A DNA stretch of 64,000 nt from a virus. Lineage: Duplodnaviria > Caudoviricetes. The DNA is taken from IMG/VR virus record IMGVR_UViG_3300042274_000720, positions 2,832-66,831 of that record, one strand, 5' to 3'. The translations under genes were made by a program, and so were the position numbers. The notes beneath the pieces are model-generated. The model did not search any database, had not been told where the DNA came from, and was given only the letters and a program-made list of their open reading frames with translations. Positions 10,787 through 21,159 of this stretch are shown here, piece by piece; positions within the stretch are counted from its first letter, which is position 1; every line of letters begins with the position of its first letter.

Positions 10787-10966
10787 TCAATCGTCCCAGG
10801 ATTCCTCCATGATTCTCATCTTCTCTCTGATTCGCTCGTAGTCCTCGACTGTCAGAGGCTCGTGCGGGAACAGCACGCGCTCGATGGTCGGCAAGAGCGA
10901 GAGCAAGCCGCAGATCGCCATGACGACGGTGATGAGCGTCTTTGCGTCTCGCTCGCCCTGGGTCAT
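10787..10966 (-). CDS. Small membrane-anchored protein
   Basis: ATGA overlap with the giant gene stop; MTQGERDAKTLITVVMAICGLLSLLP... Confidence 0.55.
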   Translation of the reverse strand: MTQGERDAKTLITVVMAICGLLSLLPTIERVLFPHEPLTVEDYERIREKMRIMEESWDD

Positions 10967-13900
10967 TCGAAAAGCTCGTTCAGCTTGTCGTTGGTCCGAT
11001 CCATCTTTTCCTCCAACTCCGTCATCCGCGCATCGAACTCTTCCGGGGTGATGCGGTTCCGGCCGTAGTCGCGCTCGACACTTCGCATCTTGGTCTTGAT
11101 GGCGCGCTGGGCCTTTTCGATATCCCATTCCTTCCAGTCGATTCCGGCCTCGACGTCGACACCTTTTGCCTTGATGCCGACACTGGACAAAATGGCCTCC
11201 GGCTTTCCGTAGGGGCGGTCCAGGTAATCCAGCGCCGGCCCTTCCGGTCCACCGGGAATGATACCCGCCCGCTGCCATTTCTCAAAATACCAGGAGCCCG
11301 GCACCCACGGCGCGGACGGCATCCACGCCTTCCAAAGGTAGTCGCCGGCCTTCGCCATCCGCTCGCCCTGGTCATCCACCAGAGGGTCGTAGATATTCTC
11401 TCCGGTGAACGCCGAGCGGTTCAGTATCATTTCGCCGACAAGAGCAATAGGCCCGCTAGGCTGGAGCCATGTGGGCAGGGGCAGCGGCGAGCGGTTGTAG
11501 CCCTGGTCGAAGACGTCGCCGGCCGGAATCCACCGGCGCACGTCCAGGAAGACCGGGTTGTCGTATTCGTCATTCCAGGGCATCCGCAGCATTCGCGGCA
11601 CCCCGACCCAGGTCCAGCCCTCCTCCTCCTTACGAAGCCCCTTGCGCTCCTCTTCCTCGTCGCCACCGGAGGCGAGAGAGCCGAGGGCGTTCACCATGTA
11701 CGCCAGGGTGAAGTATTTCGCGAGCTTCCACGGACGGGCCGCGAGGGACTGCGCGATCACCGGCACCGCTCGATAGGTGTAGGATATGAACGGCAGAACG
11801 GAGCGGCGCGCGGCGTTGATCCAGGGCGCCCGGATGTCGTAGTTGAGGAACTGTTCGCGCGCGGCGGCGGCCGCCATTTCCGGAGTGTCGCCAAGCCCGC
11901 GGCGGCGGATGTAGAGCGCCGTGCGGAACACATCGTCCTCCATCCGGTAGGCGTTCATCATGGCGTTGTCCGCCTTCTTCGCCCACTGCGCCATGCGGCG
12001 CCCCATCTCGCCCAGCGTAAAGACCATCGCGGCCTGGCTGTCGCCCTTGCGCTCCTGGCGCGCGATCTCATCCAGCAGAGGCCCCAGGACATTCTGGCGC
12101 ACTTCCTGCGAGATCATGTCGGACCCGAAGGCGCCGGCGCCCTTGGCCTCCTCGAAGTACCCGTCACCCTTCGCAACAGCGCGCACGGCGCGGGCAAGGT
12201 CGGTGAAGCGGACGTCGGCCATGTCCATGAACATGAGGTTCGACATGACGTTGTTGGTGTGGACGACAGGGCTGCGGGCCGTCTTGTTCAGCTTCCACTG
12301 CGTCAGGACGGCCTGCCACAGGCCGGGGTCGCGGTGCATCCGGTCCAGTTCCGCCAGATCGCGCCACACCTCGGCGCGGACCCACATTCCGGCCAGGGCG
12401 CCATACCGCTTCTTGCCCCCCGTGTTGGGGATTGCGGCTTCGGGCACCTTCACCCAATCGACCCCGGCGAACGTGCTCAGCTTCGTCGCCTCCAGGCTGG
12501 ACACCTTCACGCCCTCGGGCTCGTCCTTCTGCGCCCACGCCTCGTTCTCCGCAATGTCCTTGTAGAAGCGCGCGGTCGCAAGGTCGCGGGACATGGTGTG
12601 GAAGGTCTTGGCGACCGTGTAGCGGGCGTCAAGGATTTCGCCCATCTGCGCCCGCTCCTCCTTGGTGAAGTCGCGCCAGAGAGTCACCTTGCCGCCCTTC
12701 TTCGTCGCGCGCACTTCCCACACGCCGCGATCCTCGTGCCCCTCGAACCGCTTGGGCACAGGCTTGTCCGCCGGCAGGTAGACGCGGGCCTTTACCTTGC
12801 GGGCGCGCTCGCCTTGCCACTCCACGCCGGATAGGTCGTCCATCTCGGGATCGTGCATCAGGTCCATGACGCGGAACTTGCGGCCGACCGACACCTCGGG
12901 CGTCAGGGCTCCGTCGGCCGCCGCACGGTCGCCGTCGGACAGTTTCGCCGCCTCCACGTCCATAAACAGGCCGCGCCCCTTGAGAGCTTCGCCCACGATC
13001 CCCCGGCGGCGGGCGGTATTTTTCATGCGCGTGATCGCGCCGGCAAGCGGCGTCTCTGTCTTTTCCATCTCGTGCTTGGCGTAGACGCGGTGAAGGTAGG
13101 CGCCCCGGTTGCGCTGGTAGGCTTCCGGGCTGACAAGGCCCAGGCGCACGGCTTCGGCGCCCATGTCATCCACCGCCTGCCGGATCGGTGCTGCCAGCTT
13201 CCCGAGGTCGCCCTCCGCCACCCGCTCGCCCGTGAGCATGGCCTGAAGCACGCGTGACTCCTCCAGGCCCACGTCTGCTTCCGTGAGGGTCTTCACGAAG
13301 TCCATGCCCTTGTTGAGAAGGGCGCGTTCCTCGTCCTGGCGCTGGAGGTCGCGGCGCTTGTATTCCTCGCTCAGGCCGTAACGGTCGATCAGTCCGGCAC
13401 GGGCGCGCTCGATGATCGGGTTCACGAGGTTGCCCAGCGCGGACCCGTCTTCAAATTTCGCCTCCGTGACGGCCCGGCTGATCTTCGCCATGGCGGCCTT
13501 GCCCGCTACGGACTCGCCGGCGGCATCCACGCGCCCGACAACCGGGATCATCTGGAACGCGCCCCGGAACGCAGCCTCAAACGGCTGGCCGTCCATAATG
13601 GCGCGAACCAGCGTGCGCTGACGATGAGGCACGGTCTCGGGCGTGGCAGGCAGGTCTTCAATGCGGAGGCGCGCCCGGACGGAGCCCACGGCCTGCTGGG
13701 CGTCCAGCGCCGTCTCCACCGCCCGGTCCCGGGCCTGCATTCCACGCTCGCGCGCCCGGATTTGGCCTCGCGCCGCCCGGGCAAACACGTCCTCTGCCGT
13801 GGCAACATCATCCACCGTCTTGAAGCCCAGCCCCTCCAGAGCACCCCGCACCTTTGCGAGGACACGGCGGATGCGCTCGAACAGTCGGCGCGCGGCGCCG

Positions 13901-16900
13901 GACAGCCCTTTGCCGGCCGCGCGGCCGCGCTGGTAGGCCTCGAAGGCATAGGCCTCAGCCTCTTCCTGATCGAGGCTGTTGATGTCGATGTTGAGGCCCA
14001 GGCTCCGCGCCATCTCCTTCAGCTTGGGCAGATCGTTGCGCAGAGCCGTCAACTCGCCCTGCGTCAGGCCGAAGCCGGTGCGCAAGGAGTGCCAGCCCTC
14101 GTGATAGGTGGTGCTCATCGGGTCGCTGCCGCGCATGGCGATGGCGGCGACGCCGGTCAGCGGGTCCGTCATGCCCGCGACGCTGATGGGCTTGCCGGTC
14201 ACGGCGCCGCCGGATCGGGTGACCGATTCCGCCGTGCCCTCATAGACCACCTTGTCCTGGAGGATGAGCTTGTCGGGATCCAGGCCCATGGACTTCCACG
14301 CCTTGCGGACGGCCCGCTCCACATCGGGGCGCATCCTGTCGAACTCGGGCGTGGCCCGGAGCTTGACGGCACCGTCGCCGACCTCCGCCAGAAACGCAGA
14401 CCGCGCGTCCGCGCTCTTGAACTGGAAGCCCGGCACCGCACTGCGCCCCTTGAAGGCCGAATACCATCCCCCGTGCTTCTCCGCCGTGGCCTTGACGCCG
14501 GCGTAGGTCTCGCGCGGCACGCGGTTCTTGAACGACGCGACGAACAGGTCTTCGCCGGTCTTGCCGTGCTTCGCCTCGGCGGTGTCGAACGCGACGCCGT
14601 GCACCGCGCCATCATCGAACGATTTGGCGTCGCGGGGCGCGTCCCCGGCGGCAACTGCCTGAAGCCATGCGGCCCGAGAGGCTGCATCATCGAACGTGAA
14701 TAGCTTGGAACGCGCCAGGTAGGCGCCTCCGTACTGCTCCGCCAGCTTGGCCAGGCGCCCAAACTCGGAGCGCCCGAGGTACTTCTTGGGCTTCGCGGCC
14801 GTGCCGGTCAGTGTGAACTCCATCCCGCCGATGGTGACGTCACCGTCCGCCGGCATGTCCACGTCAGGCGTGGCCGGTTCCAGCCGATCCGGCACGCTCG
14901 CATCCTCGATGCGGTCGAAGAACTCCCCGATGCTCTCGGCGGTGCTGTAGTCGCTGGTGGTGGAATGGATGCGCTCCACCACGTCCTTGTCGGTCTGCTT
15001 TTCCAGCACGAGGACGTGCGCTCGCACGCTCGTCCCGGCCCGCTCGAACGTCACCGCCGGGAGCTTGATGTCGGCGACCATGAAGACGTCCTTCATGGCG
15101 TCCTGCTCCAGCAGACGTTCCAGCGCCTTGTCGGCGGTCGGGCCTTCCGGCACCAGGGCGACGATGCGTCCACCGTTGCGCAGATGCCGCGCCGCCTTGC
15201 CGACGTGCTCCATCGCCGTCTTGCCGCCGCGTCCGAACGGCGGGTTCATCACGATCGCGTCGAACTTGTTGGCGCCGACGTCCAGGGCCTCGAAGCGATC
15301 CGTCACGACACGCGCGCCGGGGCTGGCGAGTGCCGCGCGGCTCGACAGGTTCTCGGACGGCTCGACCAGGGTGCGGACGCTCCCCTCCGGGAAGAAGCGC
15401 GCAATTGCGCCGTGGCCGGCGGACGGCTCCAGCACCTTCTCGCCGAACTTCACGTTCGCCCACTCGACCATCTTGAGCCCCAGCGGCTCAGGCGTGGCGA
15501 AGTAATCCACGCCCTCGCGCTGATCGCGGCGGCCGGCCTTCTTCTGCTGGGCGTAGTAGAAGGTCTTGGCGCGCTCGAAAGGAGACATGGCCGTGTTGTC
15601 GGCCCGGTCGCGCTCCTTGCCGCCCTTGCCATCGGTCGGTGCCGGCTCGAACGTGTCGCTGTCCATGAAGGCGTCGATGAACGACTGCTTCAGCGCCCGC
15701 GCCCGGTTGCCCATGGCGAGGTTTTCGGCGGTGCCGGCGCGCTCAGCGATTTTGCCCGCGAAGGTCCACCGCTCCCAGGCCGTGCCGGTGTTCATGTACT
15801 CGAACACGGCGTCCGACACCTGCCCGACGCGGTAGATGCGCCCCTCCTCCTGGGTGGCGGTGGTCGGGCGCACGGGCATCCCCAGGTTCAGCAACACCCG
15901 CTGGTGCTGGCCGGTCGTGTCGTGCAGGCTGATCCCTGCCTCGCCGGCGGCGGACTGGATGATGATGAGGTCACGCCCGCTGCCGTCCTCGTTGAACAGG
16001 CGCTTCGCCTCGCGGCGCTGCTTGACCGGCACCTTGCCGTTGTAGACCAGCGCGTCGGGGAACACCTTGGTCAGCGTCTCGATGGGCGCCCGCATGTCGG
16101 AGAAGGACATGCCCTTGACGTCTGGGTTGCGCTTCAGGAACTCCTTGTAGAGCGCGTGGAGGTTCACGTCCTCCTGTTTGCCGTTCCGGTAGACGGTGGC
16201 CTTGGCGCCAGGTGCGATCGACAGGTCGAACGGGTTGAAACCGCCGCCCTCGTTGTAGTCGTGGAAGACGACCACCTTGCGGCCCAACGCGAGGTGCTGC
16301 TTGATGCGCGGCACGGCGTGGTGAGCCTTGATGGCCTCCAGCAGGCGCATCCGGCTCAGGTAGTCGAATTTCTCCATCACCTGATCGTGCAGCGGCCGGA
16401 ACTTGCCGTCGTCCGCCTCCGACAGGAACTTCAGGGCCTCGTCCACCTTGTTGCCGATGGCGTCGTCCACCAGGGCAAAGCGCCGCTCGTAGTCCGCATC
16501 GACATCCAGGGCCCGCCCGGACAGCGCGCCGTCGCGCTTCAGCATCTCGTGGAACTCGCGTTCCAGCACCTCGCCGTTCACGCTGGCGTCCGGCTTGGTC
16601 AGGCGGTTGGTCCGCATCCGGTAGCCGAAGTGCTGCATGAAGAAGCGCGCCCGGCCGTCGCCCGCGTTGTACCGCTGCGCCTCCGCCTGATCGACGGCCT
16701 GGTAGTCGAACAGGTAGCCCTCGGCATAGTCGATCGTCTCCACGTAGGAGAACGGCGTGGCCGACAGGAACAGGACATCAGATCGCGGCCGGCTGCGCAG
16801 ACGCTCTGCCTCCGCCGCGACCTTGGCCTCCAGGTCGCGGTACATGGCGTGCAGTTTGTCGCGCTTCGTCTCCGCCTCGCGCCACTGGCGATCGTCGTCG

Positions 16901-19900
16901 CTCGTGGCGAGGGCTTCAACGTCCCGGCTCAGGGCCTCGATCTTGTCCACGAGGTCGCGGTGCGTGTAGCGCGCCCGCGTGTTCAGCGCACCGGGATGGT
17001 TCGTGATGGCGCGGAAGGTGTCCAGGGCAGAGGTTGCCCGCCCATCGGCCGCGCGCATGAGGCTGTGGGACTCGTCGGGCACCACCAAGTCCCACTCGCG
17101 GTCCGCCAGGTGGCGGTTGGCGCCCAGGTTTGCGTAGGTGGTGACGACGACCCCTTTGCCGGCGTCCGTGGTGCTGTCCAGCGGCGTGATGGTCAGGCCC
17201 AGGTTCTTCGCCGACTTGATCCACTCGGCCACGATGTCCTGGCTCGGCGCCACGATCAGGATGTTGTCGCGACCCTGCTTCGCATACCGCTTGATAACGC
17301 CCAGGCCGACGTAGGTCTTGCCGGTTCCCGTGCCGTTGGTGAACAGGAAGCCGTGCTTGTCGGGCTGCGACAGGCGGGCCTCGGCCTTCTGCACGTCCTC
17401 CTGCTGCGCCGGCTGGAGGAACGGCAGCGTCTCGCGGATGTTGTCGATGTCGCCGGGGCGGACCGGGATGCTCTCCGCCGCTTCCTGGGCGGCGCGCTTG
17501 TCCTCTAGGCCGTGTGCGTCGTCAGCAGTTGCCGCAACTGCTTCTGCTCGGATGCGGTCAGTGCGGAGTCCATCGACGCCAGCATCACCGCCTCGTCCGC
17601 GTCCACCACGTTCGGCAGCGCCCCGGCCGCGTTCGGCTCCTCCCTCACGAAGGCCGCGATCGCCTCGCTCTCCCACACGAGCGGCGCCAGTCGATGAAAC
17701 GCCGCCACGACGTGCGCCGGGTTGCCCGCCTTCTTCAGCTCGGCCGACTCGCGCTCCAGCGCCTTGTCCATCAGATCGCCCGGCAGCGGGAACATCTGCT
17801 GCGCCCACTCGGTCTCCAGGGGCTGCGTCTCCGCGATCCTGTTCCACACCTCGGGGGGCACCTGATGCATAGTCGGTCTCCTGCTCGGGGGCTGCGTCAA
17901 TCTCGGCGGCCGGCGTCATGCCGGTGGCGTCGAAGCCGGGGTAGTATCGCACCCCCTCATACCAGGAGCGCAAGTAGGGGCGCGCTTCCTCGCCCAGGTC
18001 GTTGACCATGGCGCGGGCATAGTCGGAGAATTTCCGGGCCCCCGCCTCGATATGGTAGCCAGCCAGGGTGATGCCGGCCTGCAGGATCTCCGGGTCCAGG
18101 CCGCTGTTCAGTTGCGAGCCCGACAGCTTGCGCTTGAGCAGTTCCCGCGCCTTGGCGGCGGCGTCCTCGGTGAAGACCTTGTTGCTCTTGCCGTACTCGG
18201 TGTCCTGGGCACCAGCGGGAGCGGCGCGGCCACGGTCCGCGTTCTCGCCCTTGGCCGGAGCCCCGGGGGCCGGCTGCGCGGTGCCGAACATATCGGGCTG
18301 ATCCCGCTCCGCCGAGAACAGGCCGCCGTCCTGATCGCGCGCCGACTGCTGACCGCCCCGGCGCATCTTGGATTGCGCGCCGCGCACGCTGGCTTCATCC
18401 TGGTCGCGCCGCTGTTTTTCGGCTTGGACGTCGGCCTTCGCGCGCCGCTCGGCACCGGGCATGACAGCCTGTTCGCGCGGACCATCGGCCGTTTCGATGG
18501 TGTCGGCGGTGCGGTCTGCCCGAGTGGCGGGGGCGACGGGCGCCTCCGCCCCGAACATATCCTCGGTGGCGGTGTCCCGCTCTACTTCTTGATCGGCCCG
18601 AGTTTCGCCTGCAAAGCCAGGATCGCCTTCACGTTCTCGCTGATCTGCCGCTGCCTCGAAGGACTCAAGCCCGCGAACGGTTTCGAGGAACCGCTTTCGG
18701 GCTTCGCCGACGGTGACGTCTCCACCCTTGAGGGCGCGGGCTTGTTCGGTGAGCGCATTGGACACAGGCCCCTTTCGCTGCGCCAGCTTCTCGATTACGG
18801 CGGCAAGCCGCTGGTTCTCGGTCATGCTGCGCTGGTTGGATTGCGCGTCCAGGACGTTCCCGGCGCTCGCCAGGAGCGTTTCGTTGTCGACCGCCGTGCG
18901 GAAGACGGACTTCATCAGACGCAAGTTCTTGGTGGCATTGTCGAGGACTTTGGCGCGCTCCGCAATGAGCGTTTCGGCCATGGCCTCGGCACCGAAAAGC
19001 GATCCCTGCTCGCCCTCGGCGAAGCCAGCGGAGACGATCTCACCCACCAGCAACCGCGCTTCGCTCGCACTGCGCGGCGACACCTTCGCCAGATAGCCCA
19101 GGGCGGCCACCTGCTGCTTGGGGTCGCTGATCCGGCGGCCGACTTCCGCCGCGTATTGCTCGGGCACGGCGCCGTTCACCACCATTCCCCAGGCGTCATC
19201 GCCCAGGTCGGCCAGAGCCTTGCCGTCCTGATAGGCGCGGCGGTTCGGCGGGATGTGGTCCTCGATGGTCTCGGGACGACCGCCATTACGGAACACGCGG
19301 GCCACGTCGAGCGCCTTGGTGCTCTCTCCACCCTCGGCCAGGTTCTTCATGGCGCCGTGGAACATGGCGTCATCGGCGGAAACACCATCCGCCTCGCGCA
19401 GCACCACCGCGCGGATGGCCGGGTTCTGCCCCTCGCGCTTCAGGCGCTTCGCCAGCCCGAGGCGCTGGTGGCCGTCCACGATGAACCGCTTGCCGGCGGT
19501 GTCCTCCCAGACGACGGCGACGCCCGAGTAATCCGGGTTCCACCGCTTCACGCCGCGAAGCTGTTCCGTCACTCCCTCGGCGTCGCCGCCGTCCTTGAAC
19601 TGGAACCGCTTGGCGTCGACCTCGATCGTGTCAGGGTCCAGAAGGGCCGTGTCCGCCGGCGCAGGCGGCGTTTCCTCCGCGGCGACTTCGGGCTGCGGGT
19701 CTGCCCCTGGCACCTCGCCGGTCATGCGCGGGCCGGCGGGCTCCAGTGGTTCGGCCGGCTGAGGTTCTACCGACTCGGCGGCGGGGGCCGGCGGGGTGGT
19801 TTCGGCGGCGGGGGCTTGGGAACGCGGCGCCTCCTGCTGCCGGTCGTCCTGCCCTTCGGCCGACGGCGGCGGAGCAGCACCGATCTGAACGCCGCGCGCC

Positions 19901-21159
19901 CGAAGGTCGTCAACGATCCCCACCAGGACGGACCCGTCCTCCATGAGGACTTTCAGGCCGTCGCCGCGTTCGCTGGCGAACGCGTCCGCCACGATGCCGG
20001 CGGCACCATTGACGGAGACCGGCGTGTTCACAGGCGGCAGGCCGTTCCGCCCCAGGATCGCGTCGGCCTTCTTGGTCGCGGCGGTGTCCGCCATGACCTT
20101 CTGCCCCTCGGCGATCAGGTCCGTCGGGATCGGACTCGCCTCGTCCTCGGGTGTAATCGGCGGCGGCGTGGTTGCGGCCTGCTCGCGCTCGCCCGGCGGG
20201 AGCGGGTCGACCTCGGGTTCGCCGTAGAGCATGGTGGCGGGAATGTCGCCTGGCGGCGCGGCCTGGTTGCGCGTGTCGGGAAGCGGCGCCGTCTTATCGC
20301 GCTGCGGGTCGTCGTTCTTGACGAAGGGATGCGTGGCCGTCGCCATGCCGGCGCCCATGCCGGCACCGATGACCATCGAGTAGCCGACCTTCTCGAGGGC
20401 TTCGCCGACGGTCACGTCCTCGCCAAGCTCACCCACGTCATAGGCCGTCTGCAACGCCTCGGTCGCGCCCTCCTGGAGCCCTTCAGCGACGGTGCCCTGG
20501 ATCACGCGCGACAACAGGCTCTTGCCGCCCTTCAGGATGATCCCGAGGGGTAGCATTTCGGTCGCGCCTTCGGCCATGGCGTAGGCCGTGGCGTCCTGCG
20601 CGGCCTCCTCCGGCGTGCGTCCCTGTTCACGGGATTCGGCGTAGCGGTCACCGAACACCTGAGCGCCGATCGTAGCTGCGCCAGCTGCCGGGGTCCGGGT
20701 GGCGATGGACGCGGCGACACCCGGAAACATCTGCGCGCCCGCAACACCCAAGTTGTAGGCGATACCTTTTCCCGACCACTTGTCGACGTTCGGCGCGTTC
20801 TCCTGGAGCGCCTGCCCCGCCTCCGCGCTCATACGCTCGCCGCTCGCGGCCAGTGCGCCACGCCGGCTCTGCTGCATGTCTTGTCGTTCGCGCGCAACGC
20901 GGCTGATCAACGGATTGGCGGCGTCCTCGGCCAGGCGCCGATCGCTCTCGGAGAACGGATCACCCGCCTCCCCCGCCGCCTGCATGACACCGCCAATCCC
21001 CCGCTTGAATGCCTGCGGGACGTTCTCGACCAGCTTGCCGCCAATATCACCCCACGAGGCTTCGAAGGGGTTTCCGTCGACCGGGGCGAGACTGGTTTTC
21101 GACTGCTTCTGCTCGTTGTCGTCGGCGAACGGGTTGTAGTCGACCGGGGCCAGCGCCAT
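10963..21159 (-). CDS. 3398-aa large polyvalent (DarB-like) protein: ParB-like domain, strawberry-notch-type SF2 helicase, N6-adenine MTase, HExxH peptidase-like domain
   Basis: FIVDGHQRL (ParB-like), TNGTGTGKT/PDESH/SATP/EEGRIYR (helicase), VLEPSAGHG and NPPFG (MTase), HEGWH. Confidence 0.85.
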   Translation of the reverse strand: MALAPVDYNPFADDNEQKQSKTSLAPVDGNPFEASWGDIGGKLVENVPQAFKRGIGGVMQAAGEAGDPFSESDRRLAEDAANPLISRVARERQDMQQSRRGALAASGERMSAEAGQALQENAPNVDKWSGKGIAYNLGVAGAQMFPGVAASIATRTPAAGAATIGAQVFGDRYAESREQGRTPEEAAQDATAYAMAEGATEMLPLGIILKGGKSLLSRVIQGTVAEGLQEGATEALQTAYDVGELGEDVTVGEALEKVGYSMVIGAGMGAGMATATHPFVKNDDPQRDKTAPLPDTRNQAAPPGDIPATMLYGEPEVDPLPPGEREQAATTPPPITPEDEASPIPTDLIAEGQKVMADTAATKKADAILGRNGLPPVNTPVSVNGAAGIVADAFASERGDGLKVLMEDGSVLVGIVDDLRARGVQIGAAPPPSAEGQDDRQQEAPRSQAPAAETTPPAPAAESVEPQPAEPLEPAGPRMTGEVPGADPQPEVAAEETPPAPADTALLDPDTIEVDAKRFQFKDGGDAEGVTEQLRGVKRWNPDYSGVAVVWEDTAGKRFIVDGHQRLGLAKRLKREGQNPAIRAVVLREADGVSADDAMFHGAMKNLAEGGESTKALDVARVFRNGGRPETIEDHIPPNRRAYQDGKALADLGDDAWGMVVNGAVPEQYAAEVGRRISDPKQQVAALGYLAKVSPRSASEARLLVGEIVSAGFAEGEQGSLFGAEAMAETLIAERAKVLDNATKNLRLMKSVFRTAVDNETLLASAGNVLDAQSNQRSMTENQRLAAVIEKLAQRKGPVSNALTEQARALKGGDVTVGEARKRFLETVRGLESFEAAADQREREGDPGFAGETRADQEVERDTATEDMFGAEAPVAPATRADRTADTIETADGPREQAVMPGAERRAKADVQAEKQRRDQDEASVRGAQSKMRRGGQQSARDQDGGLFSAERDQPDMFGTAQPAPGAPAKGENADRGRAAPAGAQDTEYGKSNKVFTEDAAAKARELLKRKLSGSQLNSGLDPEILQAGITLAGYHIEAGARKFSDYARAMVNDLGEEARPYLRSWYEGVRYYPGFDATGMTPAAEIDAAPEQETDYASGAPRGVEQDRGDAAPGDRVGAADVPAAGRSDGQGAGARVGRAEEGGQPGARRGGVSSTGAARVGERGDRGLREGGAERGRGAAERGGRGRGGDAGVDGLRTDRIRAEAVAATADDAHGLEDKRAAQEAAESIPVRPGDIDNIRETLPFLQPAQQEDVQKAEARLSQPDKHGFLFTNGTGTGKTYVGLGVIKRYAKQGRDNILIVAPSQDIVAEWIKSAKNLGLTITPLDSTTDAGKGVVVTTYANLGANRHLADREWDLVVPDESHSLMRAADGRATSALDTFRAITNHPGALNTRARYTHRDLVDKIEALSRDVEALATSDDDRQWREAETKRDKLHAMYRDLEAKVAAEAERLRSRPRSDVLFLSATPFSYVETIDYAEGYLFDYQAVDQAEAQRYNAGDGRARFFMQHFGYRMRTNRLTKPDASVNGEVLEREFHEMLKRDGALSGRALDVDADYERRFALVDDAIGNKVDEALKFLSEADDGKFRPLHDQVMEKFDYLSRMRLLEAIKAHHAVPRIKQHLALGRKVVVFHDYNEGGGFNPFDLSIAPGAKATVYRNGKQEDVNLHALYKEFLKRNPDVKGMSFSDMRAPIETLTKVFPDALVYNGKVPVKQRREAKRLFNEDGSGRDLIIIQSAAGEAGISLHDTTGQHQRVLLNLGMPVRPTTATQEEGRIYRVGQVSDAVFEYMNTGTAWERWTFAGKIAERAGTAENLAMGNRARALKQSFIDAFMDSDTFEPAPTDGKGGKERDRADNTAMSPFERAKTFYYAQQKKAGRRDQREGVDYFATPEPLGLKMVEWANVKFGEKVLEPSAGHGAIARFFPEGSVRTLVEPSENLSSRAALASPGARVVTDRFEALDVGANKFDAIVMNPPFGRGGKTAMEHVGKAARHLRNGGRIVALVPEGPTADKALERLLEQDAMKDVFMVADIKLPAVTFERAGTSVRAHVLVLEKQTDKDVVERIHSTTSDYSTAESIGEFFDRIEDASVPDRLEPATPDVDMPADGDVTIGGMEFTLTGTAAKPKKYLGRSEFGRLAKLAEQYGGAYLARSKLFTFDDAASRAAWLQAVAAGDAPRDAKSFDDGAVHGVAFDTAEAKHGKTGEDLFVASFKNRVPRETYAGVKATAEKHGGWYSAFKGRSAVPGFQFKSADARSAFLAEVGDGAVKLRATPEFDRMRPDVERAVRKAWKSMGLDPDKLILQDKVVYEGTAESVTRSGGAVTGKPISVAGMTDPLTGVAAIAMRGSDPMSTTYHEGWHSLRTGFGLTQGELTALRNDLPKLKEMARSLGLNIDINSLDQEEAEAYAFEAYQRGRAAGKGLSGAARRLFERIRRVLAKVRGALEGLGFKTVDDVATAEDVFARAARGQIRARERGMQARDRAVETALDAQQAVGSVRARLRIEDLPATPETVPHRQRTLVRAIMDGQPFEAAFRGAFQMIPVVGRVDAAGESVAGKAAMAKISRAVTEAKFEDGSALGNLVNPIIERARAGLIDRYGLSEEYKRRDLQRQDEERALLNKGMDFVKTLTEADVGLEESRVLQAMLTGERVAEGDLGKLAAPIRQAVDDMGAEAVRLGLVSPEAYQRNRGAYLHRVYAKHEMEKTETPLAGAITRMKNTARRRGIVGEALKGRGLFMDVEAAKLSDGDRAAADGALTPEVSVGRKFRVMDLMHDPEMDDLSGVEWQGERARKVKARVYLPADKPVPKRFEGHEDRGVWEVRATKKGGKVTLWRDFTKEERAQMGEILDARYTVAKTFHTMSRDLATARFYKDIAENEAWAQKDEPEGVKVSSLEATKLSTFAGVDWVKVPEAAIPNTGGKKRYGALAGMWVRAEVWRDLAELDRMHRDPGLWQAVLTQWKLNKTARSPVVHTNNVMSNLMFMDMADVRFTDLARAVRAVAKGDGYFEEAKGAGAFGSDMISQEVRQNVLGPLLDEIARQERKGDSQAAMVFTLGEMGRRMAQWAKKADNAMMNAYRMEDDVFRTALYIRRRGLGDTPEMAAAAAREQFLNYDIRAPWINAARRSVLPFISYTYRAVPVIAQSLAARPWKLAKYFTLAYMVNALGSLASGGDEEEERKGLRKEEEGWTWVGVPRMLRMPWNDEYDNPVFLDVRRWIPAGDVFDQGYNRSPLPLPTWLQPSGPIALVGEMILNRSAFTGENIYDPLVDDQGERMAKAGDYLWKAWMPSAPWVPGSWYFEKWQRAGIIPGGPEGPALDYLDRPYGKPEAILSSVGIKAKGVDVEAGIDWKEWDIEKAQRAIKTKMRSVERDYGRNRITPEEFDARMTELEEKMDRTNDKLNELFE
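17505..17870 (-). CDS. Nested +1-frame gene (121 aa) inside the giant ORF
   Basis: AGGAG 7 nt before ATG; nested frame carries the GC3 bias while the host frame becomes G/R-rich low complexity. Confidence 0.75.
   Translation of the reverse strand: MHQVPPEVWNRIAETQPLETEWAQQMFPLPGDLMDKALERESAELKKAGNPAHVVAAFHRLAPLVWESEAIAAFVREEPNAAGALPNVVDADEAVMLASMDSALTASEQKQLRQLLTTHTA
18582..18758 (-). CDS. Second nested +1-frame ORF (58 aa) inside the giant ORF
   Basis: AAGGGG before ATG; C-terminal half (RQRQISENVKAILALQAKLGPIKK) carries the GC3 bias. Confidence 0.45.
   Translation of the reverse strand: MRSPNKPAPSRVETSPSAKPESGSSKPFAGLSPSRQRQISENVKAILALQAKLGPIKK

Follow-up and report, generated by a model that had tools for sequence, protein, structure and literature searches.

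A candidate conserved overlapping gene at the 3′ end of the ParB-like module in a giant polyvalent phage gene

We analyzed a 64,000-nucleotide (nt) stretch of DNA from a virus of the Caudoviricetes (Duplodnaviria; IMG/VR record IMGVR_UViG_3300042274_000720, positions 2,832 to 66,831), which is called the window here. Its virion region contains a giant open reading frame (ORF) of 3398 codons on the minus strand (10963-21159), encoding the polyvalent protein P0001, and inside this host gene, on the same strand and in the +1 frame, lies a second ORF of 58 codons followed by a TAG stop (18582-18758; product P0002). Judged from its sequence and that of its relatives, the 58-codon ORF is very probably a real, conserved and so far unannotated overlapping protein-coding gene, located at the 3′ end of the host gene's ParB-like module. 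Both the nested ORF and an AAGGGG motif in front of it had been pointed out in a preliminary description of the window, and both were found as described.

The nested ORF appears to have a start of its own, consisting of an ATG and a Shine–Dalgarno (SD)-like motif. The ATG (18756-18758, minus strand) is formed from the host codons AAT-GCG, which encode the N-A of a KGPVSNAL motif, the AAT being a rare, T-ending choice. The SD-like AAGGGG (18769-18774, minus strand) lies 10 nt 5′ of the ATG and is made by the host K-G codons of the conserved RKGP motif. Nested codons 2-30, or the 5′ overlap part (18669-18755, minus strand), share their DNA with host residues 802-830, at the conserved C-terminus of the ParB-like module; the host frame is dominant there and is conserved with three related loci, L010, L007 and L014. 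Nested codons 31-58, or the 3′ overlap part (18585-18668, minus strand), are positioned over a host linker, and the coding signal there is in the +1 frame. The ORF had previously been placed after the ParB-like region. This is correct for its last ~29 codons, which are in the linker, but the first ~29 codons overlap the conserved module end, which has the motif KGP[ILV]S[DN]AL ... F[LV]xx[VI]R. The TAG (18582-18584, minus strand) is also the point where the codon skew of the linker stops.

Among the 24 host codons from 18654 down to 18583 (residues 836-859), 17 end in A or T, compared with 2 of the last 23 nested codons; these were the counts given before, and a recount gave the same figures. 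The virus record has a guanine plus cytosine (GC) content of 66%, and from the host amino acids and the codon usage of the gene itself, 3.7 to 4.3 A/T endings would be expected in place of the 17 (P = 8e-10 to 1e-8 per codon window, with about 3400 such windows). Host amino-acid composition, which had been named as the explanation that would undo the case for a nested gene, thus does not account for the bias. The same skew was found at only one other site in P0001, another nested ORF (host residues 1095-1212) that is described below. In the 3′ half, the nested frame has genome-typical codon usage, while the linker of the giant protein has atypical usage. The host third positions there are rich in A/T and the first positions rich in G/C, because selection acts mainly on the +1 frame, in which these are the second and third positions.

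The length of the ORF alone is unremarkable. At 66% GC, an open +1 frame at this site has a probability of 0.19 based on the +1 stop density and 0.05 based on synonymous recoding, and alternative-frame, same-strand ORFs of such length are common in the GC-rich P0001 gene. We considered whether the ORF could have arisen by chance, or be the relic that a recent frameshift or recombination joint had left in a variable linker. In addition to its ordinary length, three observations would fit: tblastn and blastp searches with the nested peptide found no match among 119 polyvalent proteins or in the first ten viral loci, the host frame runs on beyond the site in all relatives, and the nested C-terminus has a weak, non-significant similarity to an upstream host-frame motif (E = 8.5). 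However, those loci and proteins are too distant for a 58-residue query, the ORF is conserved in L014 and in a larger family (see below), and the skew persists in lineages that are saturated with substitutions. Chance or a relic is an extremely improbable explanation, and the relic or recombination-joint form of it is contradicted by the L014 and family data. An origin as an out-of-frame duplicate of the upstream host motif was also tried and rejected, as the match in a search with a hidden Markov model (HMM), at the E value of 8.5 given above, ranked third of 1577 six-frame pieces and was not significant. No DNA or peptide duplicate of the nested ORF was found elsewhere in the 66.8-kb genome.

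An orthologue of the nested ORF was found in L014, a prophage-like locus in a metagenome-assembled genome of the Thalassobaculaceae that came from a scan of species-representative genomes with an alignment of the ParB-like module. L014 is 63% identical to the window in this module. Its +1 frame matched the nested peptide with a tblastn E value of 5e-10. The L014 ORF has an ATG at the same place, within the conserved host motif KGPVSDAL, and ends at the same TAG, and the final 15 nt (encoding P-I-K-K-stop) are identical. Conservation of the stop codon had been proposed as a check on the ORF, and the orthologue bears it out. In the host frame of L014, 18 of 29 codons end in A or T, where 6.5 would be expected. 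The middle segment has been substituted to saturation between the window and L014, and the A/T excess is nonetheless the same. We dropped the relic reading because a relic would lose its wrong-phase period-3 signal over the divergence that separates these two loci. When metagenomes were scanned for closer relatives, none nearer than a 57%-identical contig was obtained.

For a broader comparison, we used 174 loci that carry the host anchor motif; 77 of these were non-redundant, with GC contents from 0.32 to 0.72. In 74 of the 77, the +1 frame is open across the site for 60 codons or more (median 102, compared with a median of 41 in the +2 frame). Absence of the ORF from relatives, the other outcome that had been named as fatal to it, was thus not what we observed. 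At the AT-rich loci, the chance of an open +1 frame is 4e-5 to 1e-3 by stop density and 2.5e-4 to 6e-3 by synonymous recoding, a null model in which the host protein is recoded with the codon usage of each locus. Combining the recoding values gives P = 2e-38, a figure to be read with the phylogenetic non-independence of the loci in mind. The codon skew was seen again in 24 of 29 high-GC relatives. The +1 peptides have a motif in common, LS[DE]xQL..A...G..LA.LDALS..RK, and their alignment shows a basic, disordered N-terminus.

The start is conserved as well. An ATG is present 46 to 48 codons before the anchor in 58 of the 77 relatives and at -28/-29, the position used in the window, in 7 more. 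Most relatives have AGGAG, AAGG or AGGA 5-10 nt 5′ of the ATG. Typically, the ATG is derived from a T-ending Asp or Asn host codon and a following codon that starts with G, and the host R-K-G codons supply the SD-like purine run. In AT-rich loci, the +1 frame has a stop just 0-11 codons 5′ of the usual ATG. The main mechanistic rival to independent initiation is a programmed +1 (or -2) ribosomal frameshift, by which a shorter isoform of the ParB-like protein ending in the nested helix would be made, and no separate small protein. Such an isoform would fit the 2 of 77 relatives whose open +1 stretch contains no ATG, and some database gene calls (P0160 and P0152) do join the two frames, though these look like indels or artefacts of the gene caller. 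It would not account for the conservation of ATGs at fixed positions together with SD-like motifs, nor for the +1 stops shortly before the ATG in AT-rich loci, which are as expected for an ordinary gene start. No conserved slippery motif was noticed, although a systematic search for one was not made. We regard a frameshift as decidedly unlikely.

Substitution patterns point to constraint on the +1 frame. The loss of synonymous variation in the host frame coincides precisely with the ORF: where host residues are identical between relatives, the share of identical codons is 0.72-0.96 over the ORF, compared with 0.48-0.60 in the flanks, and all of 16 independent pairs had a higher share inside the ORF than outside it (Wilcoxon P = 3e-5). 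Differences per site in 14 independent close pairs amounted to 0.031 in the 3′ overlap, against 0.093 on its upstream side and 0.165 on its downstream side. In the same pairs, the changes in the 3′ overlap were distributed 14:9 between host positions 1 and 3, whereas the upstream ratio was 68:347 (Fisher P = 5e-6). Synonymous changes with respect to the +1 frame made up 52% of the 3′-overlap changes and 14-20% in controls. Suppression of synonymous changes cannot by itself separate coding from non-coding constraint, and it could also be the effect of a non-coding element. Candidates would be an RNA structure, an internal promoter or a binding site of the ParB-like protein on the DNA, and the open +1 frame would then be incidental. 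However, such an element would leave unexplained the open frame in genomes with GC contents of 0.32-0.46 under the synonymous-recoding null, the fixed ATG with its SD motif, the shift of substitutions to +1 third positions, and the +1 codon-usage signature in high-GC lineages that have diverged beyond nucleotide recognition. We consider this explanation very improbable. Together, the open frame, start, motif, synonymous suppression, substitution spectrum and codon skew in the family constitute the standard signature of an overlapping coding gene, and they indicate that the embedded frame is under purifying selection as well as the host frame. For the clade of the window itself, the support for purifying selection consists of the codon signature and one orthologue, L014.

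Several observations weigh against a functional overlapping gene in the window. The 3′ part is saturated between the window and L014, so that a ratio of non-synonymous to synonymous substitution rates (dN/dS) is not obtainable for that clade, and the non-independence mentioned above applies to all of the family P values except those of the paired tests. Across all family members, the 3′ overlap is only a little more similar at the amino-acid level in the +1 frame than in the host frame (mean local scores of 29.6 and 27.0, respectively), from which it follows that both frames are constrained. An HMM of the C-terminal region of the family +1 peptides that was built without the window peptide does not match it; L014 is the only significant match to this peptide, and the evidence that the peptide is homologous to the main family is its position, frame and length together with one alignment. 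The ORF is lacking in 3 of the 77 relatives and in a 26%-identical Prochlorococcus phage. Finally, the upstream start that is common in the family has been lost from the window copy, in which the SD-like motif is weak and separated from the ATG by a long (10 nt) spacer.

Some of these points would also be expected if the family gene is real, but the window copy is decaying or non-functional, truncated N-terminally by a +1 stop and with a diverged helix. There is a +1 TAA 12 codons 5′ of the window ATG, where L014 and most relatives are open back to the ATG about 47 codons before the anchor, and both the failure of the family HMM to recognize the peptide and the weakness of the SD-like motif would be consistent with decay. 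On the other hand, the +1 codon signature of the window is as strong as any in the family (P = 6e-7 over 29 codons) and would fade in the absence of selection, and L014 retains the same stop and C-terminal end. Furthermore, the second ATG is the sole start in several relatives (L052, L064, L010, L056 and L142), with good SD motifs; in L052, L064 and L010, which have the window-type start, these are AAGGAG or AGGA, placed 9-10 nt from the ATG. We consider decay of the window copy unlikely.

Assuming that the nested ORF is a functional overlapping gene, ribosomes would start independently at the ATG at 18758, using the AAGGGG from the host R-K-G codons, on the same late mRNA as the host gene. 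They would translate about 29 codons over the domain end and a further 29 or so over the linker before stopping at the TAG at 18582. The usual start, which lies upstream at about 47 codons before the host motif F[LV]xx[VI]R ends, is separated from the ORF by the +1 TAA in the window, and the phage would use the second, alternative ATG, as L010, L052, L064 and others may do. The product would have an N-terminal half with a sequence largely dictated by the host frame, and this half is disordered and rich in P, S and K. AlphaFold2 (AF2) models of the window product and of a family representative consist of one helix each, with a predicted local distance difference test (pLDDT) score of about 90 or higher, comprising residues 33-53 (18600-18662, minus strand; pLDDT about 90) and 47-80, respectively; the remainder is disordered. 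The helix at the end of the product would be amphipathic and is probably its functional part. Our best guess for the product, held with low confidence, is a small helical protein acting as a regulator, chaperone or inhibitor together with either the ParB-like module or the giant virion or ejected protein. A joint role with the ParB-like module is suggested because the gene travels with this module in both stand-alone and polyvalent architectures.

By inspection of reading frames, we found the ORF, unannotated, in Ruegeria phage 45A6 and in the RefSeq genome of Dunaliella viridis virus SI2. In the latter, it lies within a stand-alone ParB-like gene of 792 residues. The nested gene accompanies the ParB-like module irrespective of what is encoded 3′ of it: in the window, L014 and 45A6, the module is part of a giant polyvalent gene, and elsewhere the protein that contains the module ends some 100-130 codons further on. 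As a refinement, the nested ORF is linked to the ParB-like module and not to polyvalency. In five relatives, namely L017 and L028 (Aureimonas prophages), L016, L024 and L094, the nested gene has been lost, and the +1 frame contains either early stops or open, R/S-rich junk without codon skew; in L017 and L028 it is still open, with the coding signal gone.

Sequence searches of Pfam, PHROGs and the PDB gave no match to the nested product, and none that was usable came from the ESM Atlas. A tblastn search of isolate phage records with a family member gave no match at E <= 1e-3, and in three published phage records that we inspected nothing is annotated at the nested ORF. A profile search of 1.84 billion representatives returned 79 clusters, mostly of 81-103 residues. 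Five of the profile matches were inspected for a clean free-standing copy, and none was one; the host gene was broken or frame-confused in all five. A set of three loci, L192 (P0160), L225 (P0152) and L191 (P0123), illustrates how the peptide enters public gene calls: in L192 and L225, the host and nested frames are fused into one protein, and elsewhere the nested ORF alone is called where a scaffold gap breaks the host gene. Fused and nested-only calls of this kind are annotation artefacts that place the hidden peptide in protein databases. Our literature search found no paper on nested genes in polyvalent or ParB-like phage genes.

Same-strand embedded genes are of a known kind. In the Rz/Rz1 spanin genes of phage lambda, a small gene lies wholly within a larger gene on the same strand, and in phiX174, E is overprinted in D, and B and K in A. 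The arrangement of 18582-18758 inside 10963-21159 is an embedded same-strand overlapping-gene layout of the Rz1-in-Rz type. As with Rz1, a small +1 gene with its own start would lie wholly inside a phage gene, with both frames under selection. Unlike Rz1, P0002 has no cysteine and no hydrophobic N-terminus and is without the lipoprotein signal and lipobox cysteine of a spanin; there is no lysis context, and its host is the ParB-like module of a virion or polyvalent protein. The likeness to phiX174 and to viral overprinting in general, a topic treated in a review (PMC8227390), is that two proteins would be derived from one stretch of DNA, one frame being compositionally odd and disordered and the other having a normal codon signal. 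The window differs in that its genome is large, without obvious size pressure, and in that the genome-typical codon usage in the 3′ part belongs to the small nested frame, the linker of the giant protein being atypical.

The host protein P0001 is a giant single polypeptide that joins several unrelated conflict-type domains, which makes it a polyvalent protein. It combines the ParB-like module, a ResIII/SNF2-type helicase (ResIII/Helicase_C_4 in Pfam) and a small methyltransferase domain (MTS in Pfam) in one 3398-residue ORF. The module comprises host residues 507-835 (18655-19641, minus strand), as delimited by alignments, with the motif FIVDGHQR, and has the nested gene at its 3′ end. P0001 had no match to a ParB family in Pfam at E <= 0.01; we take the module to be ParB-like from the motif [FY]I[AV]DGHQR, which is invariant in the host-module alignments. 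Among polyvalent proteins, P0001 has 273 length-matched relatives, which carry ART-PolyVal, LPD38, ddrB-ParB and similar domains. The gene, with its size and its combination of ParB-like module, SNF2-type helicase and methyltransferase, fits the class of polyvalent proteins of phages and conjugative elements described by Iyer et al. 2017 (PMC5512222). Searching the text of this article by terms gave no mention of genes nested in other frames.

Two records bear on the genomic setting of the host gene. A 64-kb contig (L011, from JGI 3300042272) has a giant gene that matches the window copy at every base, and there are records of the P0001 protein on 8 contigs with lengths of up to 386 kb. The latter is consistent with an integrated prophage. 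Two other features of P0001 were noticed on the 3′ side of the ParB-like module. A stretch of about 100-125 residues (host residues ~960-1085, window ~17900-18280, minus strand) has 60-80% identity to many polyvalent proteins that differ greatly in other respects and is far better conserved than the remainder of the giant protein. In addition, short D-M-F-G, L-F-G and L-F-D motifs are repeated in the acidic linkers, at 18540-18560 and ~18240-18260 of the window (minus strand) and also in L003, L010 and other relatives. These repeats may be short linear motifs or processing sites.

If the nested product is made, it would represent a whole family of small phage proteins, present in about 170 phage and prophage sequences, that is invisible to annotation and missing from PHROGs and Pfam. 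At least some linkers of polyvalent proteins would then be dual-coding DNA rather than spacers, and dips in codon usage within giant genes would offer a practical route to more nested genes. Point changes that are synonymous in the host frame could turn the nested gene off and leave the giant protein untouched, providing a clean experimental handle.

The preliminary description had further proposed a general design, in which polyvalent proteins carry small overprinted partner genes in their linkers. P0001 does contain another nested +1 gene, of 121 codons from its ATG at 17870 to its stop at 17505 (17505-17870, minus strand), preceded by an AGGAG-type SD motif. Over this gene, the host frame encodes G/R/A-rich filler. 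Homologues in the +1 frame, at 41-44% identity, are found in L010, L012, L013 and Ruegeria phage 45A6, and all begin with M-[HY]-Q, with GGAG about 7 nt 5′. In 18 of 18 distinct viral loci, this family is nested in +1 with GGAG-N7-ATG, and the frame one base behind is open over the whole 2.7-kb locus, including one locus with a GC content of 0.47. A third nested +1 family was identified in the related giant genes of L012 (3715-3975, plus strand), L013 and L221-L224. Its products have about 87 residues, start with M-Q-K-L-N-P-K-K and are 65-74% identical between loci, and the host frame over it is of G/Q/E/P-rich low complexity.

These families support the part of the proposal by which polyvalent genes of this group repeatedly carry small overprinted genes. 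The 58-codon ORF itself calls for a refinement of the proposed design, being tied to the ParB-like module, present also in the stand-alone gene of SI2 and located with half of its length over the conserved domain end. A more far-reaching version of the proposal is possible, but we hold it as tentative: giant polyvalent or ejected-protein genes might systematically carry several module-linked +1 genes in domain ends and linkers, each product being an inhibitor, chaperone or release factor that targets or assists the domain next to it and is inherited with it during domain shuffling. The G/R/A/E-rich "linkers" would then be largely a by-product of out-of-frame reading.

Two further segments of unusual composition were noticed in L012. 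The strongest codon skew that we saw anywhere is at host codons ~484-507 of this locus (in the gene starting at L012:501), where 21 of 24 codons end in A or T (P = 5e-13). The +1 frame there encodes a K/Q/E-rich tail that ends in a stop, with no obvious ATG 5′, and this may be either a relic or a further nested coding segment. Host codons ~3102-3190 of L012 form a stretch of about 90 codons with low GC at all three codon positions within a gene of 66% GC, which looks like a recently acquired insert of lower GC content rather than a frame effect.

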